DNA from: a virus
Virus genome (UHGV): UHGV-0045963
Reading direction: 5' to 3' (one strand)
Length of the DNA: 41,161 nucleotides
A program made the translations under genes and the position numbers. Below the pieces are notes generated by a model. It had not been told where the DNA came from. It was given only the letters and a program-made list of their open reading frames with translations, and did not search any database. Shown in pieces: positions 2,015 to 30,574 of this stretch (positions within the stretch are counted from its first letter, which is position 1; each line of letters begins with the position of its first letter).

Positions 2015-2497
2015 CTATCTGGTCAGGGTGTCGTACTGTTTTTCGCAGACTCTTCCGGCTTCGGCTGCCCGGTCAGCATACTCTGCCAGTTGTCTGTTTC
2101 TCTCGAGAGATTTGCTGAGCACGTCGGCAAGCAAAACTCCGGTGTCTGCGGCTGACGACCCAGCGCCGACAATGGCGTTATAGTGCCTGAGCTGCTCACG
2201 GATGGCAACGAGCTGTTGCTGCAACCGGCCAGCGCGAGCGGCAGCATCAAGAGCATCATTGCGCGCCTGGTCGATCCTCTGCTGCGATTCACGTTCATTG
2301 ATCGCTTTCTCCTGTTCGTAGTGCTGACGAACTCTCTCATCTTCAGTTTTGCGGTCTTCTTTCGCCTGAGCATACCCGGCGTCGTACTGACGACTGCCGT
2401 GCACATTCCAGGCAACAACTCCTGATGTGGCAAGAACAGCAAGCATCGCCACGATAATCAAATGTTTCCAGTATGCTTTTACGAATGCCCAGATCAT
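2015..2497 (-). CDS. Rz-like i-spanin
   Basis: N-terminal TM segment then charged coiled-coil region; start overlaps the endolysin stop (ATGA); last gene of the lysis cassette. Confidence 0.75.
2023..2259 (-). CDS. Rz1-like o-spanin embedded in the +1 frame of Rz
   Basis: Internal Met gives [13 protein letters not shown] (lipobox LAGC) followed by a Pro/Ser-rich short protein; fully embedded in Rz as in lambda Rz/Rz1. Exact start uncertain. Confidence 0.5.
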   Translation of the reverse strand: MMLLMLPLALAGCSNSSLPSVSSSGTITPLSALGRQPQTPEFCLPTCSANLSRETDNWQSMLTGQPKPEESAKNSTTP

Positions 2498-3123
2498 ACA
2501 GCCAGCACCTTACTGGCAATGATGTATCGGGCGCGGCGGTCATCAATGCCGTTCCGGCCACCATTGATAATCAGAGTTACACGTGCAATATCGCCGGTAT
2601 ACTTCATGCAGCCTTTGCTGGAGAAGAACCAGGCCGCGCTACGGGCCGCGTATTCGTCCTGTGCCAGCAGTTCAGGATTCTCCAGCAGGTCAACTTTCAG
2701 ACCGTTTCCGCAGTCACGATAGTTATTCAAGCCGGTAATCTGGATAAGTCCGCGCCCACGGTAGTTCCAGCCATCACCAGGGGCATTGTTCCCCATGCGT
2801 TTGCTGTACACCAGATTGGCGATAGCGCGCTGTCGCTCAAGTGGTAATGCTGCTTCACCAGCACGGCGACCCAGTGCATTAGCCTGCCCCTGGGTGAGAC
2901 GCCCAGCCCGAACGAAGTTAGCCAGTCCGGTGACACTGTAGTTGAAATTTTCCTGCAACCGGGTGAAGCCCCCAGACTCATGCCCGACCTGAGCAATAAA
3001 CATTGCCTGATCTTCGGGTTTGCTGATTCCAAACTCTTTCATCGCAGAAGTTATATGCAAGAACCAGCGTTCGGCCAGCGCCTCGCTAATACCAGCAGCA
3101 CGCTGGAATTGTTTAATCTCCAT
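2494..3123 (-). CDS. endolysin, glycoside hydrolase family 19 (chitinase-like lysozyme)
   Basis: GH19-type motifs ([10 protein letters not shown]; [16 protein letters not shown]; AAWFFSS); RBS GAGG; sits between holin and Rz. Confidence 0.85.
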
Positions 3124-3421
3124 GTTTAGACCTCGTTATTTTGAAAATTTGAACGACGTTACCGCGAGTTTTAAGAACCGCAGCAAGCATGACAGCGTTA
3201 ATAATGACCTCAGATAAATCCACAGCCATTGGCGTACGTAACCAGATTGCATAGGCGACTCGAACAGGAATACTGGCCGCAGCAACAATCAGGAAATAAG
3301 CAAGCCATCCTCCCCACCTTCGGTGTTGAGAGCCGTTACGCCGGAATGTGACAACGCGAATTGCTATGCCAGTGCAAATAACTGCATTGGTGATAAGCAA
3401 AAAAAACTCATGCGTTACCAT
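3113..3421 (-). CDS. holin or antiholin-like small membrane protein
   Basis: 102 aa with 2-3 predicted TM segments; RBS GGGGAG; overlaps both neighbours. Confidence 0.5.
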
Positions 3422-3812
3422 CGTCTTTTCTCCCCGGAATTAACTCGCGTGGATTATCGGAAAGGTGATAGAGCCATATACCAATACGCACAGCGACAAT
3501 TGCTGACACGAATGCGCCTGCAGAGAAAACAATCCCTTTTTCAAAAGAGTCCTGCGTGATGGTAGGGATCAGGCTAGCTATGCCGATAAGAATTGATGCT
3601 GCTGGTTTGTAAAAGAGAAGGCCGCAAAGAAAGCTGAGCATCGACATGAGCACCCGGCGACGGATGGGGTACTCTACTGCAGAGGTAACAAAAATTACCG
3701 CCCCAGCCAAAGCCCCTAAAGCAACCTCCGGAGGGACACCTGCAATAACCGCAGCAAGAGAACCAAAACTAAGCAACTGATTTAATTGCTCACTTGTTAC
3801 TTGAGCAGACAT
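3408..3812 (-). CDS. holin-like membrane protein
   Basis: 134 aa with about four hydrophobic segments and a charged C-terminus; RBS AGGAGAAAGT; first gene of the lysis cassette. Confidence 0.6.
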   Translation of the reverse strand: MSAQVTSEQLNQLLSFGSLAAVIAGVPPEVALGALAGAVIFVTSAVEYPIRRRVLMSMLSFLCGLLFYKPAASILIGIASLIPTITQDSFEKGIVFSAGAFVSAIVAVRIGIWLYHLSDNPRELIPGRKDDGNA

Positions 3813-4118: not shown

Positions 4119-7100
4119 TTAACGTTCTTCCAGAGACTGAATCCGCTCTTTTATCTTATCCATTTCTCTGCGCTGCCATGCTGCCTCGATATAGAATAAG
4201 AGATCAGGTCTGACCCCCCATCTAGATCCTGCTGGCGTTATTTCAACGCGCTCAATGATGTCTTCCATTACCATCACTGGATTATCATCCTCATCAACAA
4301 TGATGCTCCCGTCATTATCAGTCAGCTGTATTTCCCTTTGGCCAGTAATGACGTCATCATATACTGCGGGATAATCGTCATAGCAAAGAAAGGCATAGCG
4401 GCATGTTGTGCTTTCTTCTTCCATGAGTCCGTGAGAAATAAGAACATCACGAAGTTGCTGCGCGATTACACCATGATGTATCCTCGCCCCTTCTTCTCCC
4501 TTTATAGCGACAGCGTTCAGCCATTTATAAGCGATATACCTGACGTCACCCCAGGCATCCAGCAATGCTTCGTCAGGAGAGACCGGCTCTGTCTTTAATG
4601 TTCCGTCACTGGTAACCACAGGATTGGAGCCAAGATAAACTGTCGAGAACCTGTTTCCCGGACCACCAAGAGCATTTACATTATCAAGATAAGGTTTAAC
4701 ATCTCCGTTCTCAAAAAGATGTTCGAGTGCGTTATATACCGCGCGACGTGGAGTACTGCTTCCGGAACCATGCAACGTTATCATTGCACCATCTGCTGAA
4801 GACGTTGTTTCACCGCCGCTAACGATTAATCTCTGAGCGGTAACATCATCAGACGGTACTTTCTTCGCAATAATGGCGTAATTGCCCTCCAGTTTGACTT
4901 CCGCGCGAACTTGTCCTGATGTACCTGCATGGACAGTCAGTGACTGGACGGCAACATCATCTGTGAAATCAACGGGTACAGGAACCGTCCTCACGCCGGA
5001 CGTCGACATAAAAGTAGGAAGCGTTCTGTTAGGAGTGGCTCCGTAGACAAAATCCCTTGAAACAAATTCTTCCTGTTTAATTTTCACCCTGAAACAATAC
5101 AAATCAGCCGGGTGACCATCGTGAACATAAGGATATTTTCTGTTGTTATCCCCTATGCTCCATGGGTTTAGAAAGTCTTCCCCACCGAAAATGTAGTACA
5201 GCCAGTTGTCTTTGATACAAACTGAACCAACACCAACCGCAGAGTTAACTATTCCGCCCTGATAAATCTGATCAGTAACATTAACCCACTCTACATTATC
5301 CAGACTCCACTCATTGACGTTAACTCTGGTCATAAATGTTCTTGGATAATTTCCTGCATAACGGTTATCAGGTTCTCCTCCTTCCCACTCACCAAATGCG
5401 CGCTCACTGCCAAAAATAATCAGCTCATCGCCAACTTTGGCAAAAGGAAGGTTTGAGTGATGAACATTATTTGGGAAGCGAAGAGAATTCCATGATGCAC
5501 CTAAATCAGAGCTTCTGTGCAATGAACTACCGGGTTGAGTACTTAATGTCCCCCTGGTCGTCAGATACAGAATGCCATCATAATATTTTACACATGGCTC
5601 AGATGCATTCGCCTCATATTCTGCAGGTATGCGTCTGCGAACAAAGCTACCAGGAGAACCGAAAGCATCAGAGAAATAGAGTATCCCAAGCTCGCGTGGA
5701 CCAATATCACCATTATGGTAGCCAACAGCAAAACTGTTATCGCTAATCGTCGCAAAACTGTGAATCTCAGTAACAGGAGTGCTTCCGTCAACAAAAGAAG
5801 AAATAGTTCCAAGACTGGTTTTTCTCCATGGTGACGAGTGAAATGATGTACCAAAACTCCAGTATCTACCCTCGTTATTCTGATCCACATCCTGAGTATT
5901 TTGCGTCGTAACTGTAAAAGTATTTTTATCAATAACAGTAGTCACCGTCATATTCCCGGTAACACCTGTAACACCAGAGTTTGAGAAGTTGACAAAATCA
6001 CCAGCAAATAATCCGTGATCAGTAATGCGAATATAAGCGACTTGCTGATTTGCTGCTTTCGTTATACCACCATAAACGCGAAGGCTGCGACTCATTGGAC
6101 GATCCCACAACTCTGCAACCTGCAGTTTATTTCCGCGCACGGTCCGCGTCTCAATTACAGCAAAAAGGCGATTTCTGACAACCCCCATACTCATGCAGTG
6201 ATAGTTAACTGTGGGATAGTTTTCATGTAAATCTGTAAGCCATTCCGGCGTTGTCCAGGTCTTCCCGTCATCTCCTGAGCGAACCCATGCAACATGGAGG
6301 TTATTTACACCATGGCGGTCTCCAGCCATAAAAGGCGCATAGATGACATTGTCATATACAAACGTTTTATCCTGCGTCCAGGCGTTGTACCACGGTGTAT
6401 CTGTAATTTTAAATAACTCTCCCTGGATAAAATCTTCAGAAGCATAAAAAAGAGGCTGACCCGGTATTCTCTCAAATAAAAAACGAGCATTTTTAAATCG
6501 GCTGACATCCGGAAGAGTTGATACTTTAAAAGTAAGCCCTAATCCGTCAATTTTATAACCTGGAGATGAGGCTTCAAGGCACGCGCTTATTGCAGTGGAA
6601 TCGTCATTTATACCATCACCAACAGCTCCAAAATCTTTGGGGCTAATAGCATCACGCATTTTATCCTGGAACGTTCGGTATACTGCCCCAGAACCATACT
6701 GAATAAACCAACCAAAACCACCAACAACCCCGGCGATTGCAGCATCGACATAATTACGCATTGAGCGATTATTTACAGCGTCCTGTTCAAGTGATGGATC
6801 TGCAAGGTTAGAAATTCTGTTTTGCTTTGCATCGTAATATTTTGCAAGCAAAGATGGTTTCATCAATGCACGTCTGAACCATCCAAAACATTGCTGGATC
6901 AGCATCGTCAGGTAGTCAAAGGCATCTTCATGCACTTCGGGGAAAAACTTTCCCTGATTGCGAAGGTCTGTCTCCTGCACTACATCAAGCACACGATCTA
7001 TCGTAATTCTCCATCCAGTAGCAAGCGGCGACGGAAGAACCACAGAACCGCCACTATAAGTGCCCGCCCCAGTTACCGTATAACCGGTATCCAGAACCAA

Positions 7101-7238
7101 TTCTGTTACGTTCCCGTTCAGGTCAGACACCTGAACAACCAGGTCGGATTTTCTGAAAATTCGAAAAGTATACGGAAACGATGTCGTAACGCCGTTACCG
7201 GTGTATTCGTTGTGGTCAACTTCGGTTGAGACCGTCAT
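4119..7238 (-). CDS. tailspike with sialidase-like (endo-N-acetylneuraminidase-like) central domain and C-terminal intramolecular chaperone (peptidase S74-like) domain
   Basis: 1039 aa; two Asp-box motifs (SGDDGKTW, SSDLGASW); C-terminal TSDGTLK ... GVIAQQL pattern of self-cleaving chaperone domains; phage fibre-type N-terminus (TGNGVTTSFPYTF). Confidence 0.85.
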   Translation of the reverse strand: MTVSTEVDHNEYTGNGVTTSFPYTFRIFRKSDLVVQVSDLNGNVTELVLDTGYTVTGAGTYSGGSVVLPSPLATGWRITIDRVLDVVQETDLRNQGKFFPEVHEDAFDYLTMLIQQCFGWFRRALMKPSLLAKYYDAKQNRISNLADPSLEQDAVNNRSMRNYVDAAIAGVVGGFGWFIQYGSGAVYRTFQDKMRDAISPKDFGAVGDGINDDSTAISACLEASSPGYKIDGLGLTFKVSTLPDVSRFKNARFLFERIPGQPLFYASEDFIQGELFKITDTPWYNAWTQDKTFVYDNVIYAPFMAGDRHGVNNLHVAWVRSGDDGKTWTTPEWLTDLHENYPTVNYHCMSMGVVRNRLFAVIETRTVRGNKLQVAELWDRPMSRSLRVYGGITKAANQQVAYIRITDHGLFAGDFVNFSNSGVTGVTGNMTVTTVIDKNTFTVTTQNTQDVDQNNEGRYWSFGTSFHSSPWRKTSLGTISSFVDGSTPVTEIHSFATISDNSFAVGYHNGDIGPRELGILYFSDAFGSPGSFVRRRIPAEYEANASEPCVKYYDGILYLTTRGTLSTQPGSSLHRSSDLGASWNSLRFPNNVHHSNLPFAKVGDELIIFGSERAFGEWEGGEPDNRYAGNYPRTFMTRVNVNEWSLDNVEWVNVTDQIYQGGIVNSAVGVGSVCIKDNWLYYIFGGEDFLNPWSIGDNNRKYPYVHDGHPADLYCFRVKIKQEEFVSRDFVYGATPNRTLPTFMSTSGVRTVPVPVDFTDDVAVQSLTVHAGTSGQVRAEVKLEGNYAIIAKKVPSDDVTAQRLIVSGGETTSSADGAMITLHGSGSSTPRRAVYNALEHLFENGDVKPYLDNVNALGGPGNRFSTVYLGSNPVVTSDGTLKTEPVSPDEALLDAWGDVRYIAYKWLNAVAIKGEEGARIHHGVIAQQLRDVLISHGLMEEESTTCRYAFLCYDDYPAVYDDVITGQREIQLTDNDGSIIVDEDDNPVMVMEDIIERVEITPAGSRWGVRPDLLFYIEAAWQRREMDKIKERIQSLEER

Positions 7239-7698: not shown

Positions 7699-7716
7699 AG
7701 GCCGCAAGAGCGGCCT
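7699..7716. terminator. hairpin shared by the convergent genes 7420..7692 and 7715..8443
   Basis: AGGCCGC AAGA GCGGCCT stem-loop; overlaps the stop codon of the minus-strand gene. Confidence 0.45.
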
Positions 7717-8443
7717 ATCGTTTCGCTTTGTGCTCATCCCAGCACGTTTTGCACCATGCCATTAAGCCGTCCGCATTTTGATTATTAGGGTAAAAGCTGG
7801 TTCGTTTTCTGCGGACATTACAAATTGGGCACCACTTCATATGGCGTGTATTCTTTGGGCCATCGAGACACCTTGCACACCACTTAGTCAATCCATCTGG
7901 ATTTTTTGACGATTTCCTGAATTTTTCATATGGAAGGTTTATTCTGCATCGCAAGCACTGCTTGCTACCACTTGAAACTCTGTTAGCTGATTCTTCTTTT
8001 GGCGGCGATACAGAAGGTATTCTTGCTGGCTCTGATACTGCCTGAGGTGCTTTTTTAGATGACTGAGACGATATGTCATCACCAGGGAATCTTCCATGAT
8101 ATGCCGGACGCGTTGACACTCCAGGTGGAAGCTCAGCTGTAAACGGCTTTGGCTGAATCAGTTGCCTCTCTTTTGCTAACTCCTGCTGTTTATAATATGT
8201 CTGGATTACCGCACTATCATAAGCAGGAGGTGCGGAAATATTAGGCGCATTACCTCCAGTTTTTTGAAACTGAGTAGAGGTGTGTTCTATCACCTGTGTA
8301 CGATTAATCGTTATCTCCCCATCTTCGGTCTTTATCGTTTTGTTATGATTAACGACCGTACGATCAGAGATCTTAGTCTTGTTCTGGTTGATAACGTAAA
8401 TAATCACCGCAACCACACCAACAACTATCCAGAAAACTTCCAT
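7715..8443 (-). CDS. membrane-anchored protein with C-terminal tandem Cys4 zinc-ribbon-like repeats, unknown function
   Basis: N-terminal TM (VFWIVVGVVAVIIYVI), Ser/Pro/Gln-rich linker, two repeats C-x2-C ... WC-x-x-C (CLRCR...WCARC; CPICN...WCKTC); RBS GAGGAAAAGCA. Confidence 0.6.
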   Translation of the reverse strand: MEVFWIVVGVVAVIIYVINQNKTKISDRTVVNHNKTIKTEDGEITINRTQVIEHTSTQFQKTGGNAPNISAPPAYDSAVIQTYYKQQELAKERQLIQPKPFTAELPPGVSTRPAYHGRFPGDDISSQSSKKAPQAVSEPARIPSVSPPKEESANRVSSGSKQCLRCRINLPYEKFRKSSKNPDGLTKWCARCLDGPKNTRHMKWCPICNVRRKRTSFYPNNQNADGLMAWCKTCWDEHKAKR

Positions 8444-8684: not shown

Positions 8685-8842
8685 ATGCGTATAGCACAGT
8701 CATGCCAGAATTATGGTGGGACGTGCAGGGGCACCGAAAGGTGCGCCGGGTCCTTTTAGCCGGTAGTGCAAACCCTGTACGTCTCACCACCAACGAGATT
8801 TGCACCTCAGGTGGTGATTAACCATACTAAAAGGTGATTGCC

Positions 8843-9529
8843 ATGACTGCTAACGTAACCCCATCTGTTTTTCATTTTGAATCAGAAGCAACCATTCGAG
8901 CCATTGTTATTGATGGAAATCCTTGGTTTGTTGCCAAAGACGTTATTAAAGCTCTTCAACTGACAAACCCCACCATGTCAATCAAATCTCTTGATGATGA
9001 TGAAAGGGCTAAATTTAACTTAGGTCGTCAAGGCGAAACCAATATTATCAGCGAGTCAGGCCTCTACACACTGATCCTCCGCTGCCGCGATGCGGTGACA
9101 CCAGGCACTATCCCCTACCGCTTTCGTAAATGGGTTACAGGTGAGGTTCTTCCTCAGATCCGCCGCACCGGAAGTTACATTAAAAACTCGCTCCCGCAGG
9201 AAGAACGCATAAAGATGGTTGCCGACCAGGTAGCCAACGCCACAGCATCAGCAGTGATGCAGGCGATGAAGATAGAGAACAAAACCTACAGTGCCCCACT
9301 GAAGCCCGGCTACCGCAGCCTGATTCACTCGCCGTCTGGTGTTCTCGGCCTGACGGAGAACTCACTGCTGATGAATCTGTTGAACCAGTTACAGGAAGAC
9401 GGGCACGACGTATCGGGCGCGGCGGCGGAGCTGACCACCATGTTCTGCTACATCGTCGGTGTGAGCAAATGCCTGCGTGATATCCAGACTCACGCGGAGT
9501 ACATCAACGACAAAGCAGGATTCTTCTGA
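8843..9529 (+). CDS. antirepressor (Bro-N/Ant-type N-terminal domain plus C-terminal domain shared with 7420..7692)
   Basis: N-terminal Bro-N-like sequence (FHFESEATIRAIVIDGNPWFVAKDV...); RBS AAGGTG 6 nt before ATG 8843; the track start at 8834 is GTG. Confidence 0.75.
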   Translation: MTANVTPSVFHFESEATIRAIVIDGNPWFVAKDVIKALQLTNPTMSIKSLDDDERAKFNLGRQGETNIISESGLYTLILRCRDAVTPGTIPYRFRKWVTGEVLPQIRRTGSYIKNSLPQEERIKMVADQVANATASAVMQAMKIENKTYSAPLKPGYRSLIHSPSGVLGLTENSLLMNLLNQLQEDGHDVSGAAAELTTMFCYIVGVSKCLRDIQTHAEYINDKAGFF

Positions 9530-9600
9530 CGGGCGGCGGCACAGGGATGTGCCTTTAAATAATTCTGTACAGATTGCAGACTGGGGGTGAATAGAGTACT

Positions 9601-9617
9601 ATTACCCCAAAGGTAAA
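9601..9617. promoter_or_regulatory. operator-like palindrome ATTACCCCAAAGGTAAA
   Basis: Same family; 25 nt upstream of the 9643 ATG, near a candidate TTGCAG -35 element. Confidence 0.5.
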
Positions 9618-9642
9618 CCGAGAGTTTACATGAGGGGGAAAC

Positions 9643-9831
9643 ATGGAAATCAACATCATTACATTGCTGAAGGCCATTATTGGCGGAGCGGGCTTAGGCT
9701 TTGCCCTACCAGGCGGATTATCTTTCCTGCTTCCTGCTTTTACTGTTACAGCTGGGATAGCCTATGCATTTGCTGTGGCTGGTGCTGTTGCACTCCCTGC
9801 TATCTATGCCGCAAAGAAGTTAGCCAACTAA
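9643..9831 (+). CDS. small hydrophobic Gly/Ala-rich peptide with double-glycine-leader-like N-terminus
   Basis: 62 aa; MEINIITLLKAIIGG followed by a 47-aa Gly/Ala/Leu-rich hydrophobic region ending KKLAN; RBS GAGGGGG. Confidence 0.5.
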   Translation: MEINIITLLKAIIGGAGLGFALPGGLSFLLPAFTVTAGIAYAFAVAGAVALPAIYAAKKLAN

Positions 9832-9832
9832 A

Positions 9833-10165
9833 ATGCCTGATTTATCTTGGCTTGCGCCCAGAGATGCACAGCAATTGACAAGGTTTTATTTCATACTGTG
9901 CATTGCTTATCTTGCTGTTCATCTGATATGGGATGCCGTTTGCAAAGATACGCCTCCTTTTTCTTTGGATAAGTTGCAATACAAGATGAATGAGGTTTAT
10001 TCATCATCTACTTTTGCAACCAGCGCATTCTTCATTGTTATTCTGTTCGATATGAAGAATCCACTGAGAACTTCAGATGCTTTCATATTCCCATTAATTA
10101 TTGCTGCTCTAACTGGCTTTATGATCTCATTATCAGCAATAGTGCCAAAGAAAGTAAATAACTGA
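9833..10165 (+). CDS. polytopic small membrane protein (candidate immunity or partner protein of 9643..9831)
   Basis: 110 aa, three hydrophobic segments; start 1 nt after the preceding stop; followed by a terminator. Confidence 0.5.
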   Translation: MPDLSWLAPRDAQQLTRFYFILCIAYLAVHLIWDAVCKDTPPFSLDKLQYKMNEVYSSSTFATSAFFIVILFDMKNPLRTSDAFIFPLIIAALTGFMISLSAIVPKKVNN

Positions 10166-10168
10166 ATA

Positions 10169-10190
10169 AGCCCGCGTTGCGGGCTTTTTT
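10169..10190 (+). terminator. intrinsic terminator
   Basis: Stem AGCCCGC / GCGGGCT with loop GTT followed by T6. Confidence 0.7.
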
Positions 10191-10262
10191 ATGGACGAAA
10201 CAAAAGTCAGTGCTACACTCATTGACGCCACATCGAGGTGGCTTATAGATGGAAATGTCACA

Positions 10263-10424
10263 ATGAAAAAAGCATTTGCTGCACTGTTCGTTTTGTTGTC
10301 TCTGGTAGCTTCAACTCAGGCCTTTGCCGGTCGTTGTCAGCACGACAGCGACACTGCTGCTGACGGCTCCCGCTGCGGTGGGCGTTCTGCGGATTCCCGC
10401 CCGGGTGGCGGTGGCATTCGTTAA
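10263..10424 (+). CDS. small secreted Cys-containing peptide (about 53 aa)
   Basis: Signal peptide MKKAFAALFVLLSLVASTQAFA then a Gly/Ser/Asp-rich tail with two Cys; weak RBS; the track start at 10191 directly follows a terminator. Confidence 0.35.
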   Translation: MKKAFAALFVLLSLVASTQAFAGRCQHDSDTAADGSRCGGRSADSRPGGGGIR

Positions 10425-10455
10425 AAACAAGGCCGCGAAAGCGGCCTGTGACATG

Positions 10456-10836
10456 TCACGCAACGCAATTATTACCGCGCCATGTAACATTTTTAATAAT
10501 CTTATCAGCACCAAACTCAACGTAAACAGAGCAACTGAAATGGAGTGTATAACCGCCATCAGTTGTTGCGTATGTGTTTGAATATATAGTATTACCAATT
10601 AGATTAGACGTAGTATTATACGTTGTGGTTTGTGGTACGTTATAACTACCAGAGCTTGAGTAAACATACACTCTGTTTCCATCTGGAGATGTAAGCTCTC
10701 CCTGAGGATACCCCCACTGCTGAACCATTGCGTCTATACTCTGCCCGCGCCACGTAAGCATATTTCTTTCAAACTGTGCAGCTGACTGGCATCCAACGAG
10801 AAGCATAAATCCAAAAATCAAAAATACTTTTCTCAT
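10456..10836 (-). CDS. lipoprotein, candidate superinfection-exclusion or surface moron
   Basis: MRKVFLIFGFMLLVGC lipobox; Thr/Ser/Asn/Tyr-rich mature part; AT-rich context between virion genes and ant. Start could be 10851 or 10872. Confidence 0.6.
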   Translation of the reverse strand: MRKVFLIFGFMLLVGCQSAAQFERNMLTWRGQSIDAMVQQWGYPQGELTSPDGNRVYVYSSSGSYNVPQTTTYNTTSNLIGNTIYSNTYATTDGGYTLHFSCSVYVEFGADKIIKNVTWRGNNCVA

Positions 10837-10921
10837 AATTACCCCTATCATGGAAAAACAGCACCAATCCACAAATTAACTAGTTATTTTATTATTCTTC
10901 CGAACAATACAATTCCGAATA

Positions 10922-11047
10922 CTACAAAGCCGAACCATGCCGCTGCACGCAACAGAGATTCCAATTGAAACCCATTTTTATCAAAATGTATGAATAGCAT
11001 AAAAACGCTGCACATATTAGTACAATAAAAGTTATTTGAACCATCAT
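10922..11047 (-). CDS. very small hydrophobic ORF (41 aa), frame uncertain
   Basis: Strong RBS AAAGGAG 5 nt before ATGATG; hydrophobic product MMVQITFIVLICAAFL...; the ORF-track alternative is 10884..11072 in another frame with no RBS. Confidence 0.25.
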   Translation of the reverse strand: MMVQITFIVLICAAFLCYSYILIKMGFNWNLCCVQRHGSAL

Positions 11048-11055
11048 ATCTCCTT

Positions 11056-13530
11056 TTATTGCGGAGTGACATCCTGTGGTCGCCACCAGTATGTCTGGTT
11101 AAACTCTTTCTTCGAACGTTGCTCCATTTTACGCAAATAGCCTGGTGAAAAATACTCCTGCATCTGGTTAAAGATCATGTGATCGAGAGCCGCCTTCAAG
11201 TACCAGAGATTCGCACCAGGCATCAAACCTTTCCCCAGCTTCACCAGATCACCACCAGTCTGCTCACTCTTCCCTTCCACAGCATTTAACGGTATGCCCT
11301 GAGCAATCTTCACTACGTCATCAACCAGACCAGCTACCGGGCCAAGCATCGACGCCAGCGCGCCGCTTCCGTACCTAGTGTGATCTGACAATAAAAAGTC
11401 ACCGTAAAGGCCAAGACCACCACCTTTCAGTAGAGCACCAAGCCAGAATTTTGCGGCATCTTCTCCTGTCATCTCTCGAGGATTACGACCAGACGCAAGG
11501 TCGTTAAGTTGCTGCGACAAAGCGCCAAGAATGGTCGTACTGGCAATAAACGTCGCAATATATGCCGCACGCCCACCAGCAGACGGCATACCCATAGCGC
11601 GTGACCAGTGACGCATAACAACCGAGATAGGGAACGATTTAAACAGGAAAACACTTCTCGTTAATTCACCTTTCCATGTTCCACGCTGAATACCAGAACC
11701 GGTTATCAGTTGCTCACGTGCTCCCGGTGTAATAACAGCCATATCAACTTCTTCAGTTACGGCACCGAGCAGTTTACGCATTGCCTCAAATTTCACGCGT
11801 TCAGGCTCACCAAGATGTTTAACTGCTGAATCAGGGATACGCATAATGCTTTCCGGTGTCAGCATCGTATTATTACCGTTCCCCCAGTCCTCCTGTTTCG
11901 CCAGCTTCCATACGCTCCAGTCTGTGTCAGTAATCCCTTTGCTTTTCAGGATACGAAAATCAGAGTCATCGAGGCTACGAAGGTCTGGTGTCCGTGACAC
12001 TACTTCTCCCAGGCTTCCCATCATGGTTACGCCATAGGCGCGCTTGTGCGCATCTGACCATGCTGTAAGCCCACTGGCACGCATTACCGCCGTTGCCGCC
12101 CAACGAGACACTGACGGCCCCATATTATCCATCGCCCAGCGGTTAACGCTGCCAAGTAGAGATTCCATCGCCAGACCAGCGCGGCGCGCCCGCGCAAGTT
12201 CTGTACGGTTCGTTGGGTCCATAGCTTCAAGCTGGTTGCGGAATAACTGGTTCATTGGAAGGTTGGTAACCTTCGCAGACAGATACATGGTTCCAAGATC
12301 AGAGAACGATGACAGCAACGCGGATCCGAGTCTGCTGGCAACCAGCCAGTTGCGGATATTGTCAGACCATCGCGCGATGTGCGGATTCGCTACAGGCTGT
12401 GTCTTTCCGGAAATAAAGTTGTACAGATTCTCTGTGTTGTTCGCCAGCCGCTCGACTTTACCGGTTTTACTCGGGTTAGCTGTTGCCGTTTCTGCCTTCA
12501 CCTGATCAAGAAGAGAGCGGAAAACATGATCGGGGTTTGGGCCATATGTTTCCACCAGTGCAATATCTTTACTGATACCTTCCAGGTGACCGACCATGAT
12601 TTCCCATAGAGAGCGATCGCCATAAAGTTGCTGATATTGCAGATAGGAATCTGCATCTTTGAAATGTATCTGTCGTGATGCATTACCACGGTTAGCACGT
12701 GCGCCGGAAATTCGCATTCCGGTATCAGTAAGCTTATTCAGCCCACCAGTAGCGATCGTGTTATAAGCCTCTCCAAGAAATGAAGACAACTCGGCATCGT
12801 TCATCAGTTGTCCATCGGCTCGGATATAATATTTGCGATCCAGCCTACCTATAACATCGCTAACCCACTTATCCTTTGATACTGCCCCAACCTTTTCCAT
12901 AGAATGATGTTGAGGGATCCCCCAGTTTTCGAGATAGCCAATGTCCCCACCAGCATCATTAAACCGGCGGCGCAGCAGCTCTGTAACTTCTCTCCACGCC
13001 TTAGCACCGTTTCTTGCTTTAGCATTGCCAGTAGTTTGCCCCCGCATTTCATATACCAGGTCACGTACGCCCGCTTCATCTTCAAACAGACCAAAAAAGC
13101 GAGGATCAACTGCTTCGAATGCCTCCTGCAATTGACTCAATGCATAATCACGGGTGGCTTTTGTTCTGGATTCAACAGAGAGGAAATTAGATTTACCGTC
13201 TGCATTAAAAGCTATAGTACGGTTAAGAGCGCCAAGTTTCCCATCAGCCCCTTGATAGCTATTGATAAATTTATCCAATCTCTGACGCGCGGCTATAGTG
13301 AGAGCCACACGACGTTTCTTTAATGCCGCTTCTCGCTGTAATTCTTCAGATGCCAATTGTGCTGCTCGATATAGCCGCTCTGATTCGGAAAGTTGTCGCC
13401 ACGACATAGGGTCATCACGAGCAATGGAGCGCATATTTCGATAAATGCGGTCTTCAATGTTCTGTATTTCTCGCGCCGTTAACATGCGCTGCGCCGCCTG
13501 CTGAACCGCTTGTATACATTCCTGTCTCAT
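11056..13530 (-). CDS. large virion internal/ejection protein (podovirus core protein)
   Basis: 824 aa; last large gene of the coupled virion operon before the accessory island; RBS GAGAGG. Confidence 0.65.
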   Translation of the reverse strand: MRQECIQAVQQAAQRMLTAREIQNIEDRIYRNMRSIARDDPMSWRQLSESERLYRAAQLASEELQREAALKKRRVALTIAARQRLDKFINSYQGADGKLGALNRTIAFNADGKSNFLSVESRTKATRDYALSQLQEAFEAVDPRFFGLFEDEAGVRDLVYEMRGQTTGNAKARNGAKAWREVTELLRRRFNDAGGDIGYLENWGIPQHHSMEKVGAVSKDKWVSDVIGRLDRKYYIRADGQLMNDAELSSFLGEAYNTIATGGLNKLTDTGMRISGARANRGNASRQIHFKDADSYLQYQQLYGDRSLWEIMVGHLEGISKDIALVETYGPNPDHVFRSLLDQVKAETATANPSKTGKVERLANNTENLYNFISGKTQPVANPHIARWSDNIRNWLVASRLGSALLSSFSDLGTMYLSAKVTNLPMNQLFRNQLEAMDPTNRTELARARRAGLAMESLLGSVNRWAMDNMGPSVSRWAATAVMRASGLTAWSDAHKRAYGVTMMGSLGEVVSRTPDLRSLDDSDFRILKSKGITDTDWSVWKLAKQEDWGNGNNTMLTPESIMRIPDSAVKHLGEPERVKFEAMRKLLGAVTEEVDMAVITPGAREQLITGSGIQRGTWKGELTRSVFLFKSFPISVVMRHWSRAMGMPSAGGRAAYIATFIASTTILGALSQQLNDLASGRNPREMTGEDAAKFWLGALLKGGGLGLYGDFLLSDHTRYGSGALASMLGPVAGLVDDVVKIAQGIPLNAVEGKSEQTGGDLVKLGKGLMPGANLWYLKAALDHMIFNQMQEYFSPGYLRKMEQRSKKEFNQTYWWRPQDVTPQ

Positions 13531-15338: not shown

Positions 15339-17848
15339 TGCGGAATATCTCCGGAGAATCTCTGACGCTTCTGTGTCAGATTAAGAACAACGGGAGAACC
15401 ATCATCTTTCAGCAGATAACCAGTACCAAGTTTAACCAGGTACTGACTATCGCCGTAACTTTGCAAACCATACTGACCAGGCGGTGTTTTTATCCCGGAG
15501 CCGACAACTTGTTCATTCCAAGCCTGATTAACCTGCTTATCGAATTGCTCTGCAGACATTCCCCACGGCAAAAGGACATTCCCCATTCCGTTATAGTCAT
15601 GCACGCCACCTGTAGCTACGTTAACAGCCTGTTTCCAGACATCATTGTCAATTTCGCCTGATACCACGCCTTTTTTCGCCATCACACCAGCGTAATAATC
15701 CTTTGCGATCTCGTATGCCATTGATGCGCCCTGAGCGTCACCAGCAAATGCATCCTTCACCATGTCAGAAAACTCAAGGCGAAGATCAGCATCTTTAGGC
15801 ATCGGAATACCTTTCGCATCATCAGTACCTTTACGAGCCGCCGCGCCAGCAAGAATTGTCTGCGCAGCGGTTTCAGGAGACACGGAAACATCCGGATTAA
15901 ACCAGTTTTTTTCTGCCAAAATACCACCAGGCTTATCCATCAGTATCCCGGCAACGGCAGCAGATGGAGCGTTGGCACTGATCTGCTGTAGTGCTGACAT
16001 ATACACCTGCCCACCACCAGTGCTCTGCCTGATGGTATCGAGATATGCTGCCTGTTGGGAAACTGGAGCATCACGAAAGAAAACACCGATCTGATTGGCC
16101 TCGTCTTTGGAAAAGAACGTCAGTGGAGTGCCATATGACTTAGCAAGGTCACTGACCTGAGCGGCACGCAAGGCAACGCTCTGTCCAAAGTTATCCTTAT
16201 TGCTCATGTCGATAGGCTTTGCCTGTCCGGAGGCAAGAGAGAACTGCACAGGATCCGACTGCCGCTGCTTTATCACCTGATTTGCAGCCGAAACAACGTT
16301 GTCATAAAGAGCTGCGCGTGCCGCATACCCCTCCCCTGTTTCACCAGTATCCGGGCGTAATTGCTCAACATATGCTGTAATGCTGCTTGTCGGCATGTTG
16401 CGGAAAGAGCCGATATACTGTCCGGCGATCTGCGTATTCTTAAACTCGGTATATCGCAGGTTTCCTTCTCTGACTCCATAAGCTGCAATAAAATCATCCT
16501 CACCAGGTGGGTTAGGAAATTCAACGCCACGCATATACGCAGCCGTCGCATCGCGAACCCGGCTGTCGAGCATCGTTTTATATTCAGCCTGCTGTTGTCT
16601 GGCTAGTGCATCAGTCTGTCGCAACACGCTGGCCTGATCTGATTCACTTAAAGCATCGAACCAGGCTACACCGGTATAACGTTTATTTTTTGTCGGTAGC
16701 TGAGAAAGCCCCAGCGCAGCACTAACACCTGCAGTTAACTGCTGATCACTGTATGGCTGGCTACCGTTTTCATGATGGATAATGGCTGCACAAAGCGCCT
16801 TCAGGGTATCAGGATTTGATGCATCGAGAGGCTCATCAGCAGAAACGCCAAGTTGTTCGCACACTGCTTTGATATACGACATAGTGTCATTTTTATCAGT
16901 AGGCGGTGCCCAGCGATTAATTATCTCGCTGACGGTATCAATACCCTGCCGCTGATACGACATCAGGTTCCGCCCTAATGCACGAATACCGTGTTCAGGG
17001 GTTTCGAATTTGGCAAAGCGACCATCATCACCAGTCTGCCCAACCCACGGATTAGTTTTGCTGTATTCAAGATTGCCGGGGTTATTGTTGCGTATACCGC
17101 GGGTACGATCGGAAGAGCCACTATCTGCTACAGCACGGCGAGATCCAGCAGCAGTATCGCTTAACTCGCCGTTTTGCTGTCTTACCTGAAGATAGTTTGC
17201 TCCAATAGCATTTTGAGCAGTTGCTTTTGCTGTTGCTTCTTTAAACTCGATTTTCTTGGCCTGGATTTGCTCGTCACTCCAGCCATGTGCAATGCCGTAA
17301 TCCTCAATTTGCTGGAAAGTTTGCTTATTAGCCAATACGTATGCGACGTTGTCGCCATACAATGCTGCGGCATTTTTACCATTGTTCAGCAGCGTAGCCT
17401 GAAACTGGCCTTCTTCGTAGGCATTTATTTGCCCTATCTCGTGCCGCCCTGCCTGCGTAGTGAACTGAATGCGCTGCTGCTGCGCCTGCTGCATGAAAGC
17501 ATTACGAGCCTGTTCATCCGGCAGCGACATAGCCAGTTGTTCGACCTGAGCATCAAACTGCTGCGTATACTCCTGACCTTTTCCAATAGCATTTTTCCCT
17601 TTCAGGTTAAGCAATCCTGTTTCAGGATTATTCAGCAGATCACTGCTTATCTGACTGAGGTTAAGAGATGCCTCCTGAGCCAGAGCGATATTGGCACGCT
17701 GTTTTGCCTGACCAAAAACATCAATTGCCTCTGTCCCTGCCCGAACAAAAGCATCACCAATACCTGGCTGAGAAAACGTCTGCAAGCCTGCTGACTGAAC
17801 TCCACGGCTCTGAACCTGACGGCCGGATACTGTTGGTACGACTGGCAT
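15335..17848 (-). CDS. virion internal/ejection protein
   Basis: Start set at the internal ATG with RBS GGAGG, which overlaps the upstream stop by 1 nt (TAATG); the longer track ORF (to 17923) would overlap the upstream gene by 76 nt. Confidence 0.65.
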   Translation of the reverse strand: MPVVPTVSGRQVQSRGVQSAGLQTFSQPGIGDAFVRAGTEAIDVFGQAKQRANIALAQEASLNLSQISSDLLNNPETGLLNLKGKNAIGKGQEYTQQFDAQVEQLAMSLPDEQARNAFMQQAQQQRIQFTTQAGRHEIGQINAYEEGQFQATLLNNGKNAAALYGDNVAYVLANKQTFQQIEDYGIAHGWSDEQIQAKKIEFKEATAKATAQNAIGANYLQVRQQNGELSDTAAGSRRAVADSGSSDRTRGIRNNNPGNLEYSKTNPWVGQTGDDGRFAKFETPEHGIRALGRNLMSYQRQGIDTVSEIINRWAPPTDKNDTMSYIKAVCEQLGVSADEPLDASNPDTLKALCAAIIHHENGSQPYSDQQLTAGVSAALGLSQLPTKNKRYTGVAWFDALSESDQASVLRQTDALARQQQAEYKTMLDSRVRDATAAYMRGVEFPNPPGEDDFIAAYGVREGNLRYTEFKNTQIAGQYIGSFRNMPTSSITAYVEQLRPDTGETGEGYAARAALYDNVVSAANQVIKQRQSDPVQFSLASGQAKPIDMSNKDNFGQSVALRAAQVSDLAKSYGTPLTFFSKDEANQIGVFFRDAPVSQQAAYLDTIRQSTGGGQVYMSALQQISANAPSAAVAGILMDKPGGILAEKNWFNPDVSVSPETAAQTILAGAAARKGTDDAKGIPMPKDADLRLEFSDMVKDAFAGDAQGASMAYEIAKDYYAGVMAKKGVVSGEIDNDVWKQAVNVATGGVHDYNGMGNVLLPWGMSAEQFDKQVNQAWNEQVVGSGIKTPPGQYGLQSYGDSQYLVKLGTGYLLKDDGSPVVLNLTQKRQRFSGDIPQ

Positions 17849-18393
17849 TATAATCCTCCGGGTAATCTGGTTCCTGCTGCTGCCCCGATTGGCGCAGGGG
17901 TGCTTTGAGTAAACGGACTCCACGTCCCACCAAACATCTGGTACGCACCGTATGCCTTCAGAGGCGCAGTGAGCAATGTTGTTGCTGCTCCCACATTCCC
18001 CTGTTTACGGGCTGAACTGGCTTCTGCTTTATAGTTGGCAGCCTGAACCTGATAACCGTAAGCCTCGCGTTGCGCGTTATTCACCGTCGTCAGCGAATCA
18101 AGAGCGCCAAACTGAGCAGTGTCACCAAATATATCCAGCGCGTTACCTGTAGATAAATCGGCGCCGGTCGCCCCCATTGTCGCCGCCTGTGTACCAAGCC
18201 GCTGTCGGGTCTCTCTGCGCCGTTGCTCAGCTTCAGCGTTACCCCTGTTTATTGCATCATTTGCCTGAGCTGTGGCTATATCTGCGTTCGCTTCTGCAAC
18301 CTTCGAGGCATACCTTACCTGTTGGTACTGGGTGTATGCCTGAATGCCACTCATGGCGAGCATTGCGCCACCAGCAATAACCGGATCGCACAT
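17848..18393 (-). CDS. small virion internal protein (T7 gp14-like position)
   Basis: 181 aa, Ala/Gln-rich; 1-nt stop/start overlaps with both neighbours. Confidence 0.55.
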   Translation of the reverse strand: MCDPVIAGGAMLAMSGIQAYTQYQQVRYASKVAEANADIATAQANDAINRGNAEAEQRRRETRQRLGTQAATMGATGADLSTGNALDIFGDTAQFGALDSLTTVNNAQREAYGYQVQAANYKAEASSARKQGNVGAATTLLTAPLKAYGAYQMFGGTWSPFTQSTPAPIGAAAGTRLPGGL

Positions 18394-18857: not shown

Positions 18858-21328
18858 CAGAATCCCCCAACAGTAAGACGAGGAATAACGGCAAGAACAG
18901 ACAGCGGCAACGGATCAAGCTGACGGATTTTTACACGTCCGTTTTTGCCCCAGTTACTGTCTAGTTTCACTTCTACTTTTCCGGTAGCATCATCAACAGG
19001 ATCATCGTAGAACTCGAATTCACGCTGTGGATATTCGTACCATTTACCGCCGGGCGTAGTCGCCCAGATGCCGCGACTGGCATTCACAACCAGAGTAACG
19101 GAGGGGATCACCTGTTTTTTGTCCAGCAGCGTTTCCTGTCCGTTAATGTTGATATCCAGTGTTTCGAATTCAGCAGTTATTGGCAGGCCGATGTGCACTA
19201 CAGCCCCCGGAGATTCCAGCGTGACGGCACCTCCGGAAACCACTTTCTGTGGTTCCACGTTCGCATCAGAGAGAATGTTTACGGTCTGGCCTTCAAGATG
19301 AGACAGGCCTCCAAATGTCCGGCGCGCCATCTGCCAGTTCGTGGTGGCCACATTCCTGAGGGATGGCGGGACGTTCCTGTTAGCACGAACCACTACAGCG
19401 GTATTGCTGGTTACAGAAATAATGTCGCAACGTAATTCTTTTGACACTTCATCGCCAGTATCAGGATCAGTTCCGGTATAAGGGAACTGTAGTTGCGCAC
19501 CGACATCACTACTGGTGAAGTACGCACCACCAGAAACACTGATTGTATATTCCGCGCGGTAATCCCATTCGCCAGAACCACCAGTGATTGTCATCGTTCT
19601 GTCAGACGTATTTCTTCCATCATAGCTAAGGCCAGAATCAACAAAGAAAGCGTCTTCATCGCTGGTAAATAAACGGCTGGACAGCCGCTCGATGTATCTC
19701 ACTGTTTGCCCGTTAACGGTTCGGTTAACGACGAAATACACCGCATCTTCATTGCCTTCGCTGATACTGCATGTGCTTTCATATTTTCCGGTACTGGATT
19801 GTGGTGCCCATGCAAAAACCTGCTGATCACGCAAATAGGTCATCACCAGTAATTTACCGTCATCACGAATGCAGAAGGCGCTGGAGTAAGGGACAATAGA
19901 GAAGCACCAGTCAACAATGCTGTGCTTCTGAAAAAGATGATTGGCAAGGATAGTAAGGTCGTTCCCCTGATAGCCGTCAACATCGAATGAATAGGCCAGA
20001 TCACGGACAACACTGCCTTTCTCCTGGACGAACAGAGCAATATTCGCCACGGCAATTGGTGGGACGTTGCTTGAGCCATTTGATCCCTGAGAGCTGAATG
20101 CAAATGATGATGGGGTTAACACTTTGTTCTGGTCGCCGGTGATGACGTACTCACCTCCGGAAGTCAGCGCCACCAGCGAACCAACATCAATCAGGTGGCG
20201 GATCTCATTAACCTGACGCCCGGCATAGGTGTAGATAATTCTGTCGTCATCCTGCGTAGGATTGCTTTTGCCAAAATCCTTATAATCCCCGGTACGGCTG
20301 GCCCAGATAGTCTGAGGGAACGCAGTCGATGCGGCGAAGTAAAGACGTTGTTGATAATAAACAACAGTGCCAGGATAACCATTAACACTGTTCCAGGCAT
20401 ATTTAGCCCATTTATAGCTGGCATTATCCTCGCCAACGACCTGCGAAGGAATATAGGAAATCACCTCGGCAGTTGCAGTAGTTCCATTTGCAGCAGTGAT
20501 ACGGGCAATGCCAAAACCACTGTGCAGATATTCCCACTCAATGCCAGTATCATCATCACCGGATCCACCCCAGCCATCCCATGATGTGCCTTCTGTATGC
20601 GAAGGGCGCAAAGTACCTGTTTTGCCTGCTGTAACGGCGCGATAGTAGTTACTGTCTGCACGGCGAATATCGCCAATCGACGTACTCTTACTGGTTTCCC
20701 ATACCGGCACTGAATCCACTGCAGGCTGTTCCAGATAGAACAATTTGCCTACCTGCTCCGCGCCAAAAATAGAGGCGCTTGCCGTTAACGTAATTGTCCC
20801 GGTGCTGGCGCTGGCATAAACCGTCACTGACTCGTCAATATTGATATCTTCAAATGGCCCGTTCTTCGTTACCACATCAACCAGTTGCCAGTTGTCATGA
20901 GCATAGCGACGCAACTCTTTCGGCGGGTATGCCGGATGAACAAGCGTAAGCACGTCGGCGCTTTGCGTGAATTTAATTCGGAACAGATCGGCTTCAGTAT
21001 ATGGCGTGGCAATTTCATAAATAACATTGCTGCTGTTCAGCACCAACGCACCATCTTTGATAACGCGCATGTACTGGTGTCCGAACTCCAGAGCATAGGT
21101 CTGAACCGTCGAGAACTGGAACGGGATCAGGCGGCATTTCCGATTTGGGTATTTGGCGGCACCGACAAAACGCGTACCTGGTCGATTCTCAACGCCGCCA
21201 TACTGCCGCACGATAAAGTTATCGCACTTGCGCAATGCCACCTGGTACTTCGCCATGTCAATACGCCCGTACAACGACGGTCCAATCTCACCACCGGCAA
21301 AGCTGGGCTGGATCCAACTGATAGCCAT
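18857..21328 (-). CDS. tail tubular protein B-like (nozzle)
   Basis: 823 aa, immediately downstream of and coupled to the tube A-like gene; size and position as in T7-like tails. Confidence 0.55.
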   Translation of the reverse strand: MAISWIQPSFAGGEIGPSLYGRIDMAKYQVALRKCDNFIVRQYGGVENRPGTRFVGAAKYPNRKCRLIPFQFSTVQTYALEFGHQYMRVIKDGALVLNSSNVIYEIATPYTEADLFRIKFTQSADVLTLVHPAYPPKELRRYAHDNWQLVDVVTKNGPFEDINIDESVTVYASASTGTITLTASASIFGAEQVGKLFYLEQPAVDSVPVWETSKSTSIGDIRRADSNYYRAVTAGKTGTLRPSHTEGTSWDGWGGSGDDDTGIEWEYLHSGFGIARITAANGTTATAEVISYIPSQVVGEDNASYKWAKYAWNSVNGYPGTVVYYQQRLYFAASTAFPQTIWASRTGDYKDFGKSNPTQDDDRIIYTYAGRQVNEIRHLIDVGSLVALTSGGEYVITGDQNKVLTPSSFAFSSQGSNGSSNVPPIAVANIALFVQEKGSVVRDLAYSFDVDGYQGNDLTILANHLFQKHSIVDWCFSIVPYSSAFCIRDDGKLLVMTYLRDQQVFAWAPQSSTGKYESTCSISEGNEDAVYFVVNRTVNGQTVRYIERLSSRLFTSDEDAFFVDSGLSYDGRNTSDRTMTITGGSGEWDYRAEYTISVSGGAYFTSSDVGAQLQFPYTGTDPDTGDEVSKELRCDIISVTSNTAVVVRANRNVPPSLRNVATTNWQMARRTFGGLSHLEGQTVNILSDANVEPQKVVSGGAVTLESPGAVVHIGLPITAEFETLDININGQETLLDKKQVIPSVTLVVNASRGIWATTPGGKWYEYPQREFEFYDDPVDDATGKVEVKLDSNWGKNGRVKIRQLDPLPLSVLAVIPRLTVGGF

Positions 21329-28111: not shown

Positions 28112-28132
28112 CACCGTGACATGTCACAAACA

Positions 28133-30557: not shown

Positions 30558-30574
30558 AACACCTTCGTGACATG

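Follow-up and report, generated by a model that had tools for sequence, protein, structure and literature searches.

Two convergent, independently distributed genes for a predicted secreted peptide and a predicted lipoprotein beside the ejection-protein genes of phage genome UHGV-0045963

The virus genome UHGV-0045963 was analysed over its full length of 41,161 nucleotides, referred to here as the window, and the present account concerns two small genes that face each other in its first third. The peptide gene (10263–10424, plus strand) encodes a 53-residue pre-peptide and the lipoprotein gene (10456–10836, minus strand) a 126-residue prolipoprotein. A preliminary description, made from the letters of the window, had pointed to a signal-peptide open reading frame (ORF) with two cysteines facing a lipoprotein gene with the lipobox LLVGC, and both ORFs are indeed present. 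Both are real and conserved genes, and their sequences indicate that the products probably have a role at the cell envelope. The region as a whole is ordinary but tidy prophage cargo made up of two uncharacterised families.

The lipoprotein gene starts at ATG 10836, where all homologues begin with MKK or MRK and where the Prokaryotic Genome Annotation Pipeline (PGAP) agrees; a Shine-Dalgarno-like AGGGG (10842–10846, minus strand), as read from the sequence, lies 5 nucleotides upstream. A longer frame of 138 residues from GTG 10872 was rejected, as its N-terminal extension is unconserved. The gene proposed earlier is thus real, and its end moves from 10872 to 10836. By a rule-based assessment, the N-terminus MRK-VFLIFGFML-LVG-C16 conforms to a lipobox (LVG/C16, or LLVG/C) behind signal residues 1–15, and the LPAM_1 model gives a weak match. 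Across 20 close homologues C16 never changes, and in 35 distant ones it is nearly invariant. Position +2 is occupied by Gln here and throughout the enterobacterial homologues and by Ala in distant ones; Asp is not seen there, and under the Lol-avoidance rule its absence would direct the lipoprotein to the outer membrane. The mature part comprises 111 residues (12.3 kDa) and matches the Thr/Asn/Tyr-rich character first ascribed to it: Thr accounts for 11.7%, Ser for 9.9%, Asn for 9.0% and Tyr for 8.1%, concentrated in residues 58–96. The invariant features are C16, C102 and C124, together with the motifs WGYP and, at the C-terminus, GNNC. The protein belongs to phrog_3716 (E 5e-64), a family of uncharacterised function. 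Estimates of selection gave saturated synonymous divergence (dS) and non-synonymous divergence (dN) of 0.15–0.47.

In the AlphaFold2 (AF2) model of the lipoprotein (predicted local distance difference test score [pLDDT] 84), two short helices pack on a 5–6-stranded antiparallel sheet, an arrangement predicted to represent a BamE/BLIP-like fold. This fold class holds protein-binding inhibitors and immunity proteins, including BLIP-like proteins, the type VI secretion system immunity protein BtiO, and BamE. Membership of the BamE/OsmE family (SmpA_OmlA, PF04355) by sequence was considered and rejected, as there is no Pfam match and hhalign assigns a probability of 3% to BamE and <1% to OsmE. A Foldseek search with the model returned nothing at E ≤ 1e-3, and the profile match to the CAP-associated domain of 4h0a is marginal only (E 0.017). 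Compared with the SmpA_OmlA-type proteins BamE, OsmE and YfeY and with the BLIP-like, CAP_assoc_N (PF14504) and DUF4309 domains, the lipoprotein has a longer, Thr/Asn/Tyr-rich sheet, and compared with BamE/BLIP-like domains it features a conserved C-terminal cysteine pair with the GNNC motif.

A profile search across 1.84 billion representatives placed the lipoprotein in a family of 3702 clusters at E ≤ 1e-3 and 1095 at E ≤ 1e-10. Most members are lipoproteins of 115–150 residues with the motifs SW.G, WGYP, PNGNKVY.Y and GN.C, and some are fused to MORN, SH3 or SHOCT domains. The genomes that carry them include Glaciecola, Nitrospirota, Bacteriovoracaceae, Desulfobacterales, Campylobacterota and Azospirillum-like metagenome-assembled genomes. 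The chromosomal homologues share no neighbour genes, save for synteny among the closely related Azospirillum-like genomes. The core domain has no model in Pfam or NCBIfam; the lipoprotein therefore flags a large domain family, of thousands of clusters across many Gram-negative phyla, that these resources do not cover.

The peptide gene is annotated by PGAP and its product reads MKKAFAALFVLLSLVASTQAFA followed by GRCQHDSDTAADGSRCGGRSADSRPGGGGIR. A frame of 77 residues from ATG 10191 was rejected, as the additional N-terminal residues are unconserved and the homologues begin at MKK. The signal spans residues 1–22 (10263–10328) and is composed of MKK, a 13-residue hydrophobic core and the sequence TQAFA/G, consistent by rule-based assessment with a Sec signal that has small residues at −3 and −1 (A-F-A). 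Every full-length homologue has Ala at −1, and −3 is Ala, Ser or Val. Because small residues are kept at these positions, we infer that the signal is cleaved, contrary to the PGAP name “transmembrane anchored protein,” which implies an uncleaved signal and is probably misleading. Literature searches on this database name and on Uetakevirus lipoproteins found nothing, and the gene is not mentioned in the paper on phage vB_EcoP_ZX5 (PMC9782041).

The predicted mature peptide, GRCQHDSDTAADGSRCGGRSADSRPGGGGIR, spans 31 residues (G23–R53) and contains C25 and C38. An alignment of 23 homologues shows both cysteines to be invariant, together with D30, A32, G35-S36-R37-C38, G40-R41-S42 and S45-R46-P47-G48-G49, so that the mature part has the invariant core DGSRCGGRSxDSRPGG; the signal varies freely. 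The peptide belongs to phrog_14503 (E 2e-40), likewise a family of uncharacterised function, and is without a relative in the PDB (by profile search), Pfam or NCBIfam. A reading of the stretch CQHDSDTAADGSRC as calcium-binding, in an “Excalibur”-like or EF-hand-like manner, was set aside, as Pfam gives it no support. The small ORF is conserved, as the preliminary description had presupposed. Its 57 homologue clusters come from Escherichia, Klebsiella, Cronobacter, Franconibacter, Citrobacter, Salmonella, Pectobacterium and Dickeya, and the mature part differs from the Cronobacter copy by 19 synonymous and 2 non-synonymous changes. Both the peptide gene and the lipoprotein gene are under purifying selection.

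The surroundings of the peptide gene vary between phage types. Pectobacterium and Dickeya prophages carry the gene in antisense orientation, with a giant MuF_C polyvalent protein gene on one side and tail genes on the other, and in another E. coli element it follows a lysis cassette and a RelB/YafQ module; in two of its lineages outside the Uetakeviruses the DNA upstream is unrelated. Morons are extra genes inserted between genes that are adjacent in relatives, with their own promoter and terminator, an atypical composition and often an envelope protein as product. Given its presence in several phage types and the unrelated upstream DNA, the peptide gene behaves as a textbook moron: it is absent from phage phiV10, has terminators on both sides and a promoter-like site (a consensus match), and deviates in guanine–cytosine (GC) content. 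It thus appears to be a self-contained moron that is also found in unrelated phage types. The earlier suggestion of moron-type genes stands for the peptide gene as a self-contained unit; the lipoprotein gene looks less like one, being coupled to an operon in most relatives and having no convincing promoter of its own here.

On its upstream side the peptide gene is preceded by an intrinsic terminator, AAGCCCGC-GTT-GCGGGCTT with a T-run (10168–10192, plus strand), that closes the unit of two small membrane-protein genes of 62 and 110 residues. The predicted RNA fold reaches −15.4 kcal/mol (z = −3.4; 0 of 200 shuffles as good), and the terminator is expected to isolate the peptide gene from upstream transcription. 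A candidate sigma-70 promoter follows (10192–10219, plus strand), composed of TGGACG (10192–10197), 16 nucleotides and the extended −10 element TGcTACACT (10211–10219). It is a consensus match only; a TAnnnT −10-like element upstream of the peptide gene is kept in six aligned loci from four genera. Approximately 20 nucleotides upstream of the start codon lies the inverted repeat GCCAC-N6-GTGGC (10227–10242, plus strand), which is kept in six loci and shows two changes that affect both sides, GCCGC/GCGG in Pectobacterium and an A-T at the outer pair in Cronobacter. The repeat is absent from two other lineages and its fold energy is ordinary (z = −0.87). It may represent a 5′-leader hairpin or a protein-binding site.

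The hairpin and the 12-bp palindrome that had been reported between the two genes were found at 10430–10447 and 10448–10459, respectively. The GC-rich hairpin GGCCGC-GAAA-GCGGCC is situated between the two stop codons and is common to both convergent genes; it has a 7-bp stem and a GAAA/UUUC loop. On the minus strand it is followed by TTGTTTTT (10429–10422), and it would therefore serve as the intrinsic terminator of the late operon and the lipoprotein gene. On the plus strand an A-tract comes before it, so that for the peptide gene it probably acts as a bidirectional terminator of lower strength. E. coli and Klebsiella loci keep the hairpin, and a different one takes its place in Cronobacter and Pectobacterium.

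The perfect palindrome GTGACATGTCAC abuts the hairpin and overlaps the TGA stop codon of the lipoprotein gene; where the lipoprotein gene is the terminal gene, this stop corresponds to bases 2–4 of the palindrome on the minus strand. The window contains exactly three copies (10448–10459, 28116–28127 and 30567–30578) versus 0.15 expected. All three mark transcription-unit ends (after the terminase-large terminator, upstream of the terminase-small gene and at the late-operon end), and those at 10448 and 28116 adjoin a terminator hairpin. In phage phiV10 the exact palindrome occurs twice (2262–2273 and 19493–19504), at sites that correspond to those in the window: one copy follows the terminator of the terminase-large gene and the other lies between p21 and the late terminator. 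In 19 related loci, too, the palindrome stands where the late operon ends; some of these loci belong to Klebsiella and Enterobacter phages whose virion proteins are ~27% identical. It may be a termination-linked protein-binding site or a module junction.

The facing arrangement raises the question of whether the two genes form a functional pair, such as a ligand and its binder or a toxin and its immunity protein, convergent for the sake of co-regulation. The genes adjoin and share a terminator in the window and in ~34 E. coli genomes, both products are directed to the periplasm, and the fold class of the lipoprotein includes immunity and inhibitor proteins. The distributions contradict this. 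Among 5426 complete E. coli genomes, 445 (~8%) carry the peptide gene and 34 the lipoprotein gene, so that the peptide occurs without the lipoprotein in ~410 E. coli genomes, as it does in other phage types. Conversely, prophages of Salmonella, Klebsiella, Enterobacter and Raoultella encode the lipoprotein but no such peptide, the Salmonella lipoprotein being indexed in 930 blocks of the collection. Where the peptide gene is missing, a Bro-N, DUF2335 or DUF4760 gene converges on the lipoprotein gene. In other phages, genes of at least four other kinds stand opposite the peptide gene, among them those for a 98-residue multi-pass membrane protein and a 204-residue cytoplasmic protein and an Ant/Arc module. 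With each gene widespread without the other, the pairing implied by the preliminary description fails: the separate distributions mark the two genes as independent cargo. A functional pair is largely refuted by these distributions and we consider it highly improbable.

In all the related prophages examined, the internal-virion (ejection) block ends with the lipoprotein gene. The gap to the preceding gene is 0 bp in one locus (L020), 1 bp in Enterobacter kobei, 10 bp in Salmonella, 142 bp in Klebsiella and 220 bp in the window. In two lineages a gene for a ~100-residue membrane protein with two helices (L013 5705–6004 and L018 5675–6004) overlaps the lipoprotein gene by 4 bp, and the two products could form a pair spanning the inner and outer membranes. 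A standard promoter scan found no promoter upstream of the lipoprotein gene; the weak candidates, AATAAT at 10896 and TAAAAT at 10891, are each accompanied by a −35 element that matches at 3 of 6 positions. As no convincing promoter of its own is apparent, read-through from the late operon is the simplest expectation. The gene nonetheless shows the other features of a moron, namely absence from phiV10, 40% GC and a terminator.

This placement gives some weight to a role in the lytic cycle of the phage, in which the lipoprotein would act as an envelope helper for the handling of ejection proteins, virion release or the timing of lysis. The fixed position at the end of the internal-virion operon, the frequent abutting or overlap with the preceding gene, which suggests translational coupling, and the inner- plus outer-membrane pair that the two-helix protein would form in two lineages are all consistent with such a helper. 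The lipoprotein is nevertheless dispensable, as it is absent from phiV10, phiv142-3, TL-2011b, BUCT711 and Cronobacter prophages that have near-identical virion genes. Its history is also decoupled from that of the adjacent ejection proteins: it is 79% identical to the Klebsiella copy and 60–67% identical to the Raoultella and Enterobacter copies, whereas the adjacent large virion proteins are 27–28% identical. Versus Salmonella, the lipoprotein is 68% and the 824-residue virion protein encoded before it 93% identical. Moreover, the related phage phiV10 already has spanin genes in the usual place, as an Rz/Rz1-like pair after its endolysin gene. We regard the lytic-cycle helper as unlikely. 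A spanin role in particular was rejected. An o-spanin is encoded in the lysis cassette by a lipoprotein gene next to the i-spanin gene or embedded in it, and its mature part is short, Pro-rich and unstructured; the lipoprotein gene described here lies ~7 kb from the holin/endolysin ORFs (2015–3812) and its mature part is a folded domain of 111 residues.

The lipoprotein gene co-occurs with at least four types of tailspike (endosialidase, GDSL lipase, P22-tail and Phage_tail_beta). It is a horizontally mobile cassette whose landing site is fixed, always at the end of the ejection operon. Because its history is decoupled both from its neighbours and from the tailspike type, the primary glycan receptor and the phage's own ejection proteins are unlikely targets, and a conserved component of the host envelope would be the more economical one. 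An intact copy was also observed in Enterobacter quasihormaechei (L022 4500–5400), in a ~1.6-kb prophage remnant beside guaA that includes a fragment of a large virion gene next to the lipoprotein gene; domestication is possible there.

From gene order and protein identities, we assign the window to an epsilon15/phiV10-like (Uetakevirus) prophage of E. coli. Three E. coli chromosomes (FDAARGOS_1303, TUM13773 and MS 57-2) match the region 9600–11100 at 100% identity, and phage vB_EcoP_ZX5 matches part of it at 99.5–99.7%. The tailspike (4119–7238, minus strand) is an endosialidase composed of an N-terminal extension, beta-propeller, beta-barrel, stalk and S74 chaperone, which marks the source as a K1-capsule-specific temperate podophage, as ZX5 with its endosialidase has already been described (PMC9782041).

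The two genes occupy a hypervariable slot with the ejection-protein operon on one side and the Bro-N/ant unit on the other, in line with the position between ejection genes and ant that was first proposed. The ejection block runs from 17848 to 11056 on the minus strand. The 181-residue ORF that begins it (17848–18393, minus strand) matches the T7 gp14 internal virion protein family above the Pfam cut-off, which makes it reasonable to call the genes for the 862-, 600- and 824-residue proteins ejection genes. The last large gene, which precedes the lipoprotein gene, encodes the 824-residue virion protein (11056–13530, minus strand; phrog_684, “virion structural protein”). This protein is 98.7% identical to p20 of phiV10, and despite this close relationship phiV10 has neither the peptide gene nor the lipoprotein gene. 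Together with the Sec signal and the lipobox, this absence bears out the earlier view of the genes as accessory and envelope-targeted.

At the other end of the slot is the Bro-N/ant-type gene (8834–9529). Between it and the peptide gene are the genes for the two small hydrophobic proteins of 62 residues (9643–9831, plus strand; phrog_13406) and 110 residues (9833–10165, plus strand; phrog_36716; 37.5% GC). In other prophages their place is taken by DUF2335, DUF4760 or YafO-toxin genes. The exact combination with both of these genes, that is, the full 1.5-kb arrangement, was found in 3 of the 5426 complete E. coli genomes. The occupants of the slot in relatives are mostly small envelope proteins, such as the 98-residue multi-pass membrane protein and phiV10 p21. 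Beyond the Bro-N gene, between it and a gp19-like gene, an ORF of 242 residues annotated as hypothetical (7715–8443, minus strand) gives a sub-threshold Stc1 match; a counterpart is absent from phiV10, and the ORF looks like further cargo.

Directly after the stop of the 824-residue gene lies a 41-residue ORF, MMVQITFIVLICAAFLCYSYILIK... (10922–11047, minus strand), of uncertain gene status. It has a strong AAGGAG Shine-Dalgarno sequence, encodes one hydrophobic helix and corresponds in position to phiV10 p21, a 46-residue membrane protein; PGAP places no annotation there. A second frame beside it, extending to 10884, encodes another helix-like segment. We considered a frameshifted two-helix membrane gene between the 824-residue and lipoprotein genes and rejected this, as the phage records show only the same split frame and none an intact one.

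The analysis of GC content supports part of the “AT-rich pocket” described earlier. The lipoprotein gene (40.2% GC) falls at the 4th percentile of windows of the same size, the spacer 10837–11055 has 33.8% GC, and the region 9600–11100, with 42.7%, falls at the 0.6th percentile. The peptide gene does not conform, with 57.4% GC overall and 66.7% in its mature part versus 48.5% for the window, and the span 10263–10872 as a whole (45.7%) sits at an unremarkable 20th percentile. That the composition is unlike that of the neighbouring virion genes is borne out by the comparison.

Taken together, we tentatively favour a reading, to which we give somewhat less than an even chance, in which both products act on conserved envelope proteins so as to interfere with a step of phage entry; the case is weaker for the peptide. 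This reading rests on the location signals, the accessory status of the genes, the slot beside entry-apparatus genes, the protein-binding fold class of the lipoprotein and the envelope proteins that occupy the slot elsewhere. Under this proposal, two independent cargo genes would happen to converge on one terminator at the junction of the late virion operon and the Bro-N/ant unit. The peptide would leave the cytoplasm through Sec, signal peptidase I would cleave it behind AFA, and oxidation would then give a 31-residue periplasmic peptide with a single C25–C38 disulfide loop. As the mature sequence is near-invariant across phages of at least six genera and several phage types, it would most likely bind a conserved component of the host envelope. 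The lipoprotein gene would probably be read through from the late promoter, hence late in infection, with transcription ending at the hairpin terminator, and the BamE/BLIP-like domain would serve as a binding module for a conserved outer-membrane or periplasmic protein of the host. The lipoprotein, acting from the periplasmic face of the outer membrane, and more weakly the peptide, could thereby block an envelope step of infection as Llp, Rtp45 or Cor do, so that superinfecting phages are excluded and/or progeny are spared futile adsorption to debris.

A more specific version, which we put forward as a long shot, holds that the lipoprotein grips, from within the periplasm, a conserved machine of the outer membrane such as BAM, LptDE or a porin and so closes the route by which podophage ejection proteins cross that membrane, with the peptide acting independently in the periplasm to block a conserved entry factor. 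Exclusion would then act at the penetration step and not at the receptor and would be effective across genera. The lipoprotein would be the phage branch of a very large BamE-like lipoprotein family, and this action would be the reason why phages carry it between otherwise unrelated genomes; this too we hold to be speculative.

Several observations weigh against an entry block. Neither in sequence nor in fold were the products found to resemble Llp, Rtp45, Cor or any PHROG with an exclusion annotation, and PADLOC-DB yielded no match at E ≤ 0.1 for the peptide, the lipoprotein or four neighbours. AF2 gives no confident fold for the mature peptide (pLDDT 45–62). The mature lipoprotein is about twice the size of known exclusion lipoproteins, and its gene adjoins ejection genes, not a receptor-binding protein gene. 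Expression confined to the late phase, from the virion operon, would leave a lysogen unprotected by the lipoprotein. The very wide occurrence of the family in the chromosomes of free-living bacteria, away from any phage context, suggests a general envelope role, and the intact copy in the E. quasihormaechei remnant fits a benefit to the host at least as well as exclusion.

The last two points lead to an alternative in which lysogenic conversion by the lipoprotein, and possibly by the peptide too, would benefit the host through envelope robustness, resistance to serum or antimicrobial peptides, or colonisation, as with lambda Bor and Iss; an anti-phage role would then fall away. We judge this a plausible but distinctly less probable alternative. 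It is consistent with a huge family (3702 clusters) that is mostly chromosomal in diverse Gram-negatives, examples such as Glaciecola, Nitrospirota, Campylobacterota and Azospirillum-like genomes having no phage genes nearby, with the retention of an intact copy in the remnant beside guaA, and with the presence of the E. coli copies in extraintestinal pathogenic (ExPEC)/K1-type strains such as APEC O1 and CE10; for the peptide, its occurrence in 8% of complete E. coli genomes points the same way. The prophage remnant is, however, a single case, and neither the Bor/Iss nor the Lom families show likeness to the products. There is also no convincing independent promoter upstream of the lipoprotein gene, and the close linkage with late virion genes seen in most relatives speaks for lytic expression, at which stage a benefit to the host would be irrelevant.

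Temperate-phage morons include HK97 gp15 and lambda bor and lom. The peptide gene fits this class closely. The lipoprotein gene differs in having no recognisable promoter of its own and in being operon-coupled in most relatives, and neither product is homologous to gp15, Bor or Lom. Beyond the ~8% of complete E. coli genomes that encode it, the peptide is found in prophages of a number of pathogens of plants and humans.

The immI region of phage P22 places sieA-mnt-arc-ant between the ejection gene 16 and the tailspike gene 9. The locus described here lies in the same niche as this variable accessory region of ant/Bro-type and exclusion genes, between the ejection and tailspike genes of a temperate podophage. 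The phage lineage is different, and SieA, an inner-membrane protein (PMC10883804), is unrelated to either product.

Small periplasm-facing outer-membrane lipoproteins whose genes lie beside those of the entry apparatus act as exclusion factors by binding a host outer-membrane protein: Llp of T5 acts on FhuA and Rtp45 of Rtp on LptDE, both from the periplasmic face of the outer membrane (PMC9586334, PMC12685063). Llp, Rtp45 and also Cor of phi80, T1 and N15 are ~6–8 kDa, versus 12.3 kDa for the lipoprotein described here, and their genes adjoin the receptor-binding protein gene of lytic siphophages, whereas the present gene ends the ejection operon of a temperate podophage and does not track the tailspike type. 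If either product does block entry, it would represent a new, structurally distinct exclusion factor from temperate podophages and would point to the part of the envelope on which epsilon15-like phages depend once they have bound capsule or O-antigen. The features shared with Llp, Rtp45 and Cor are an accessory phage lipoprotein gene beside entry-apparatus genes and the same predicted location, specified by a lipobox with a residue other than Asp at +2.

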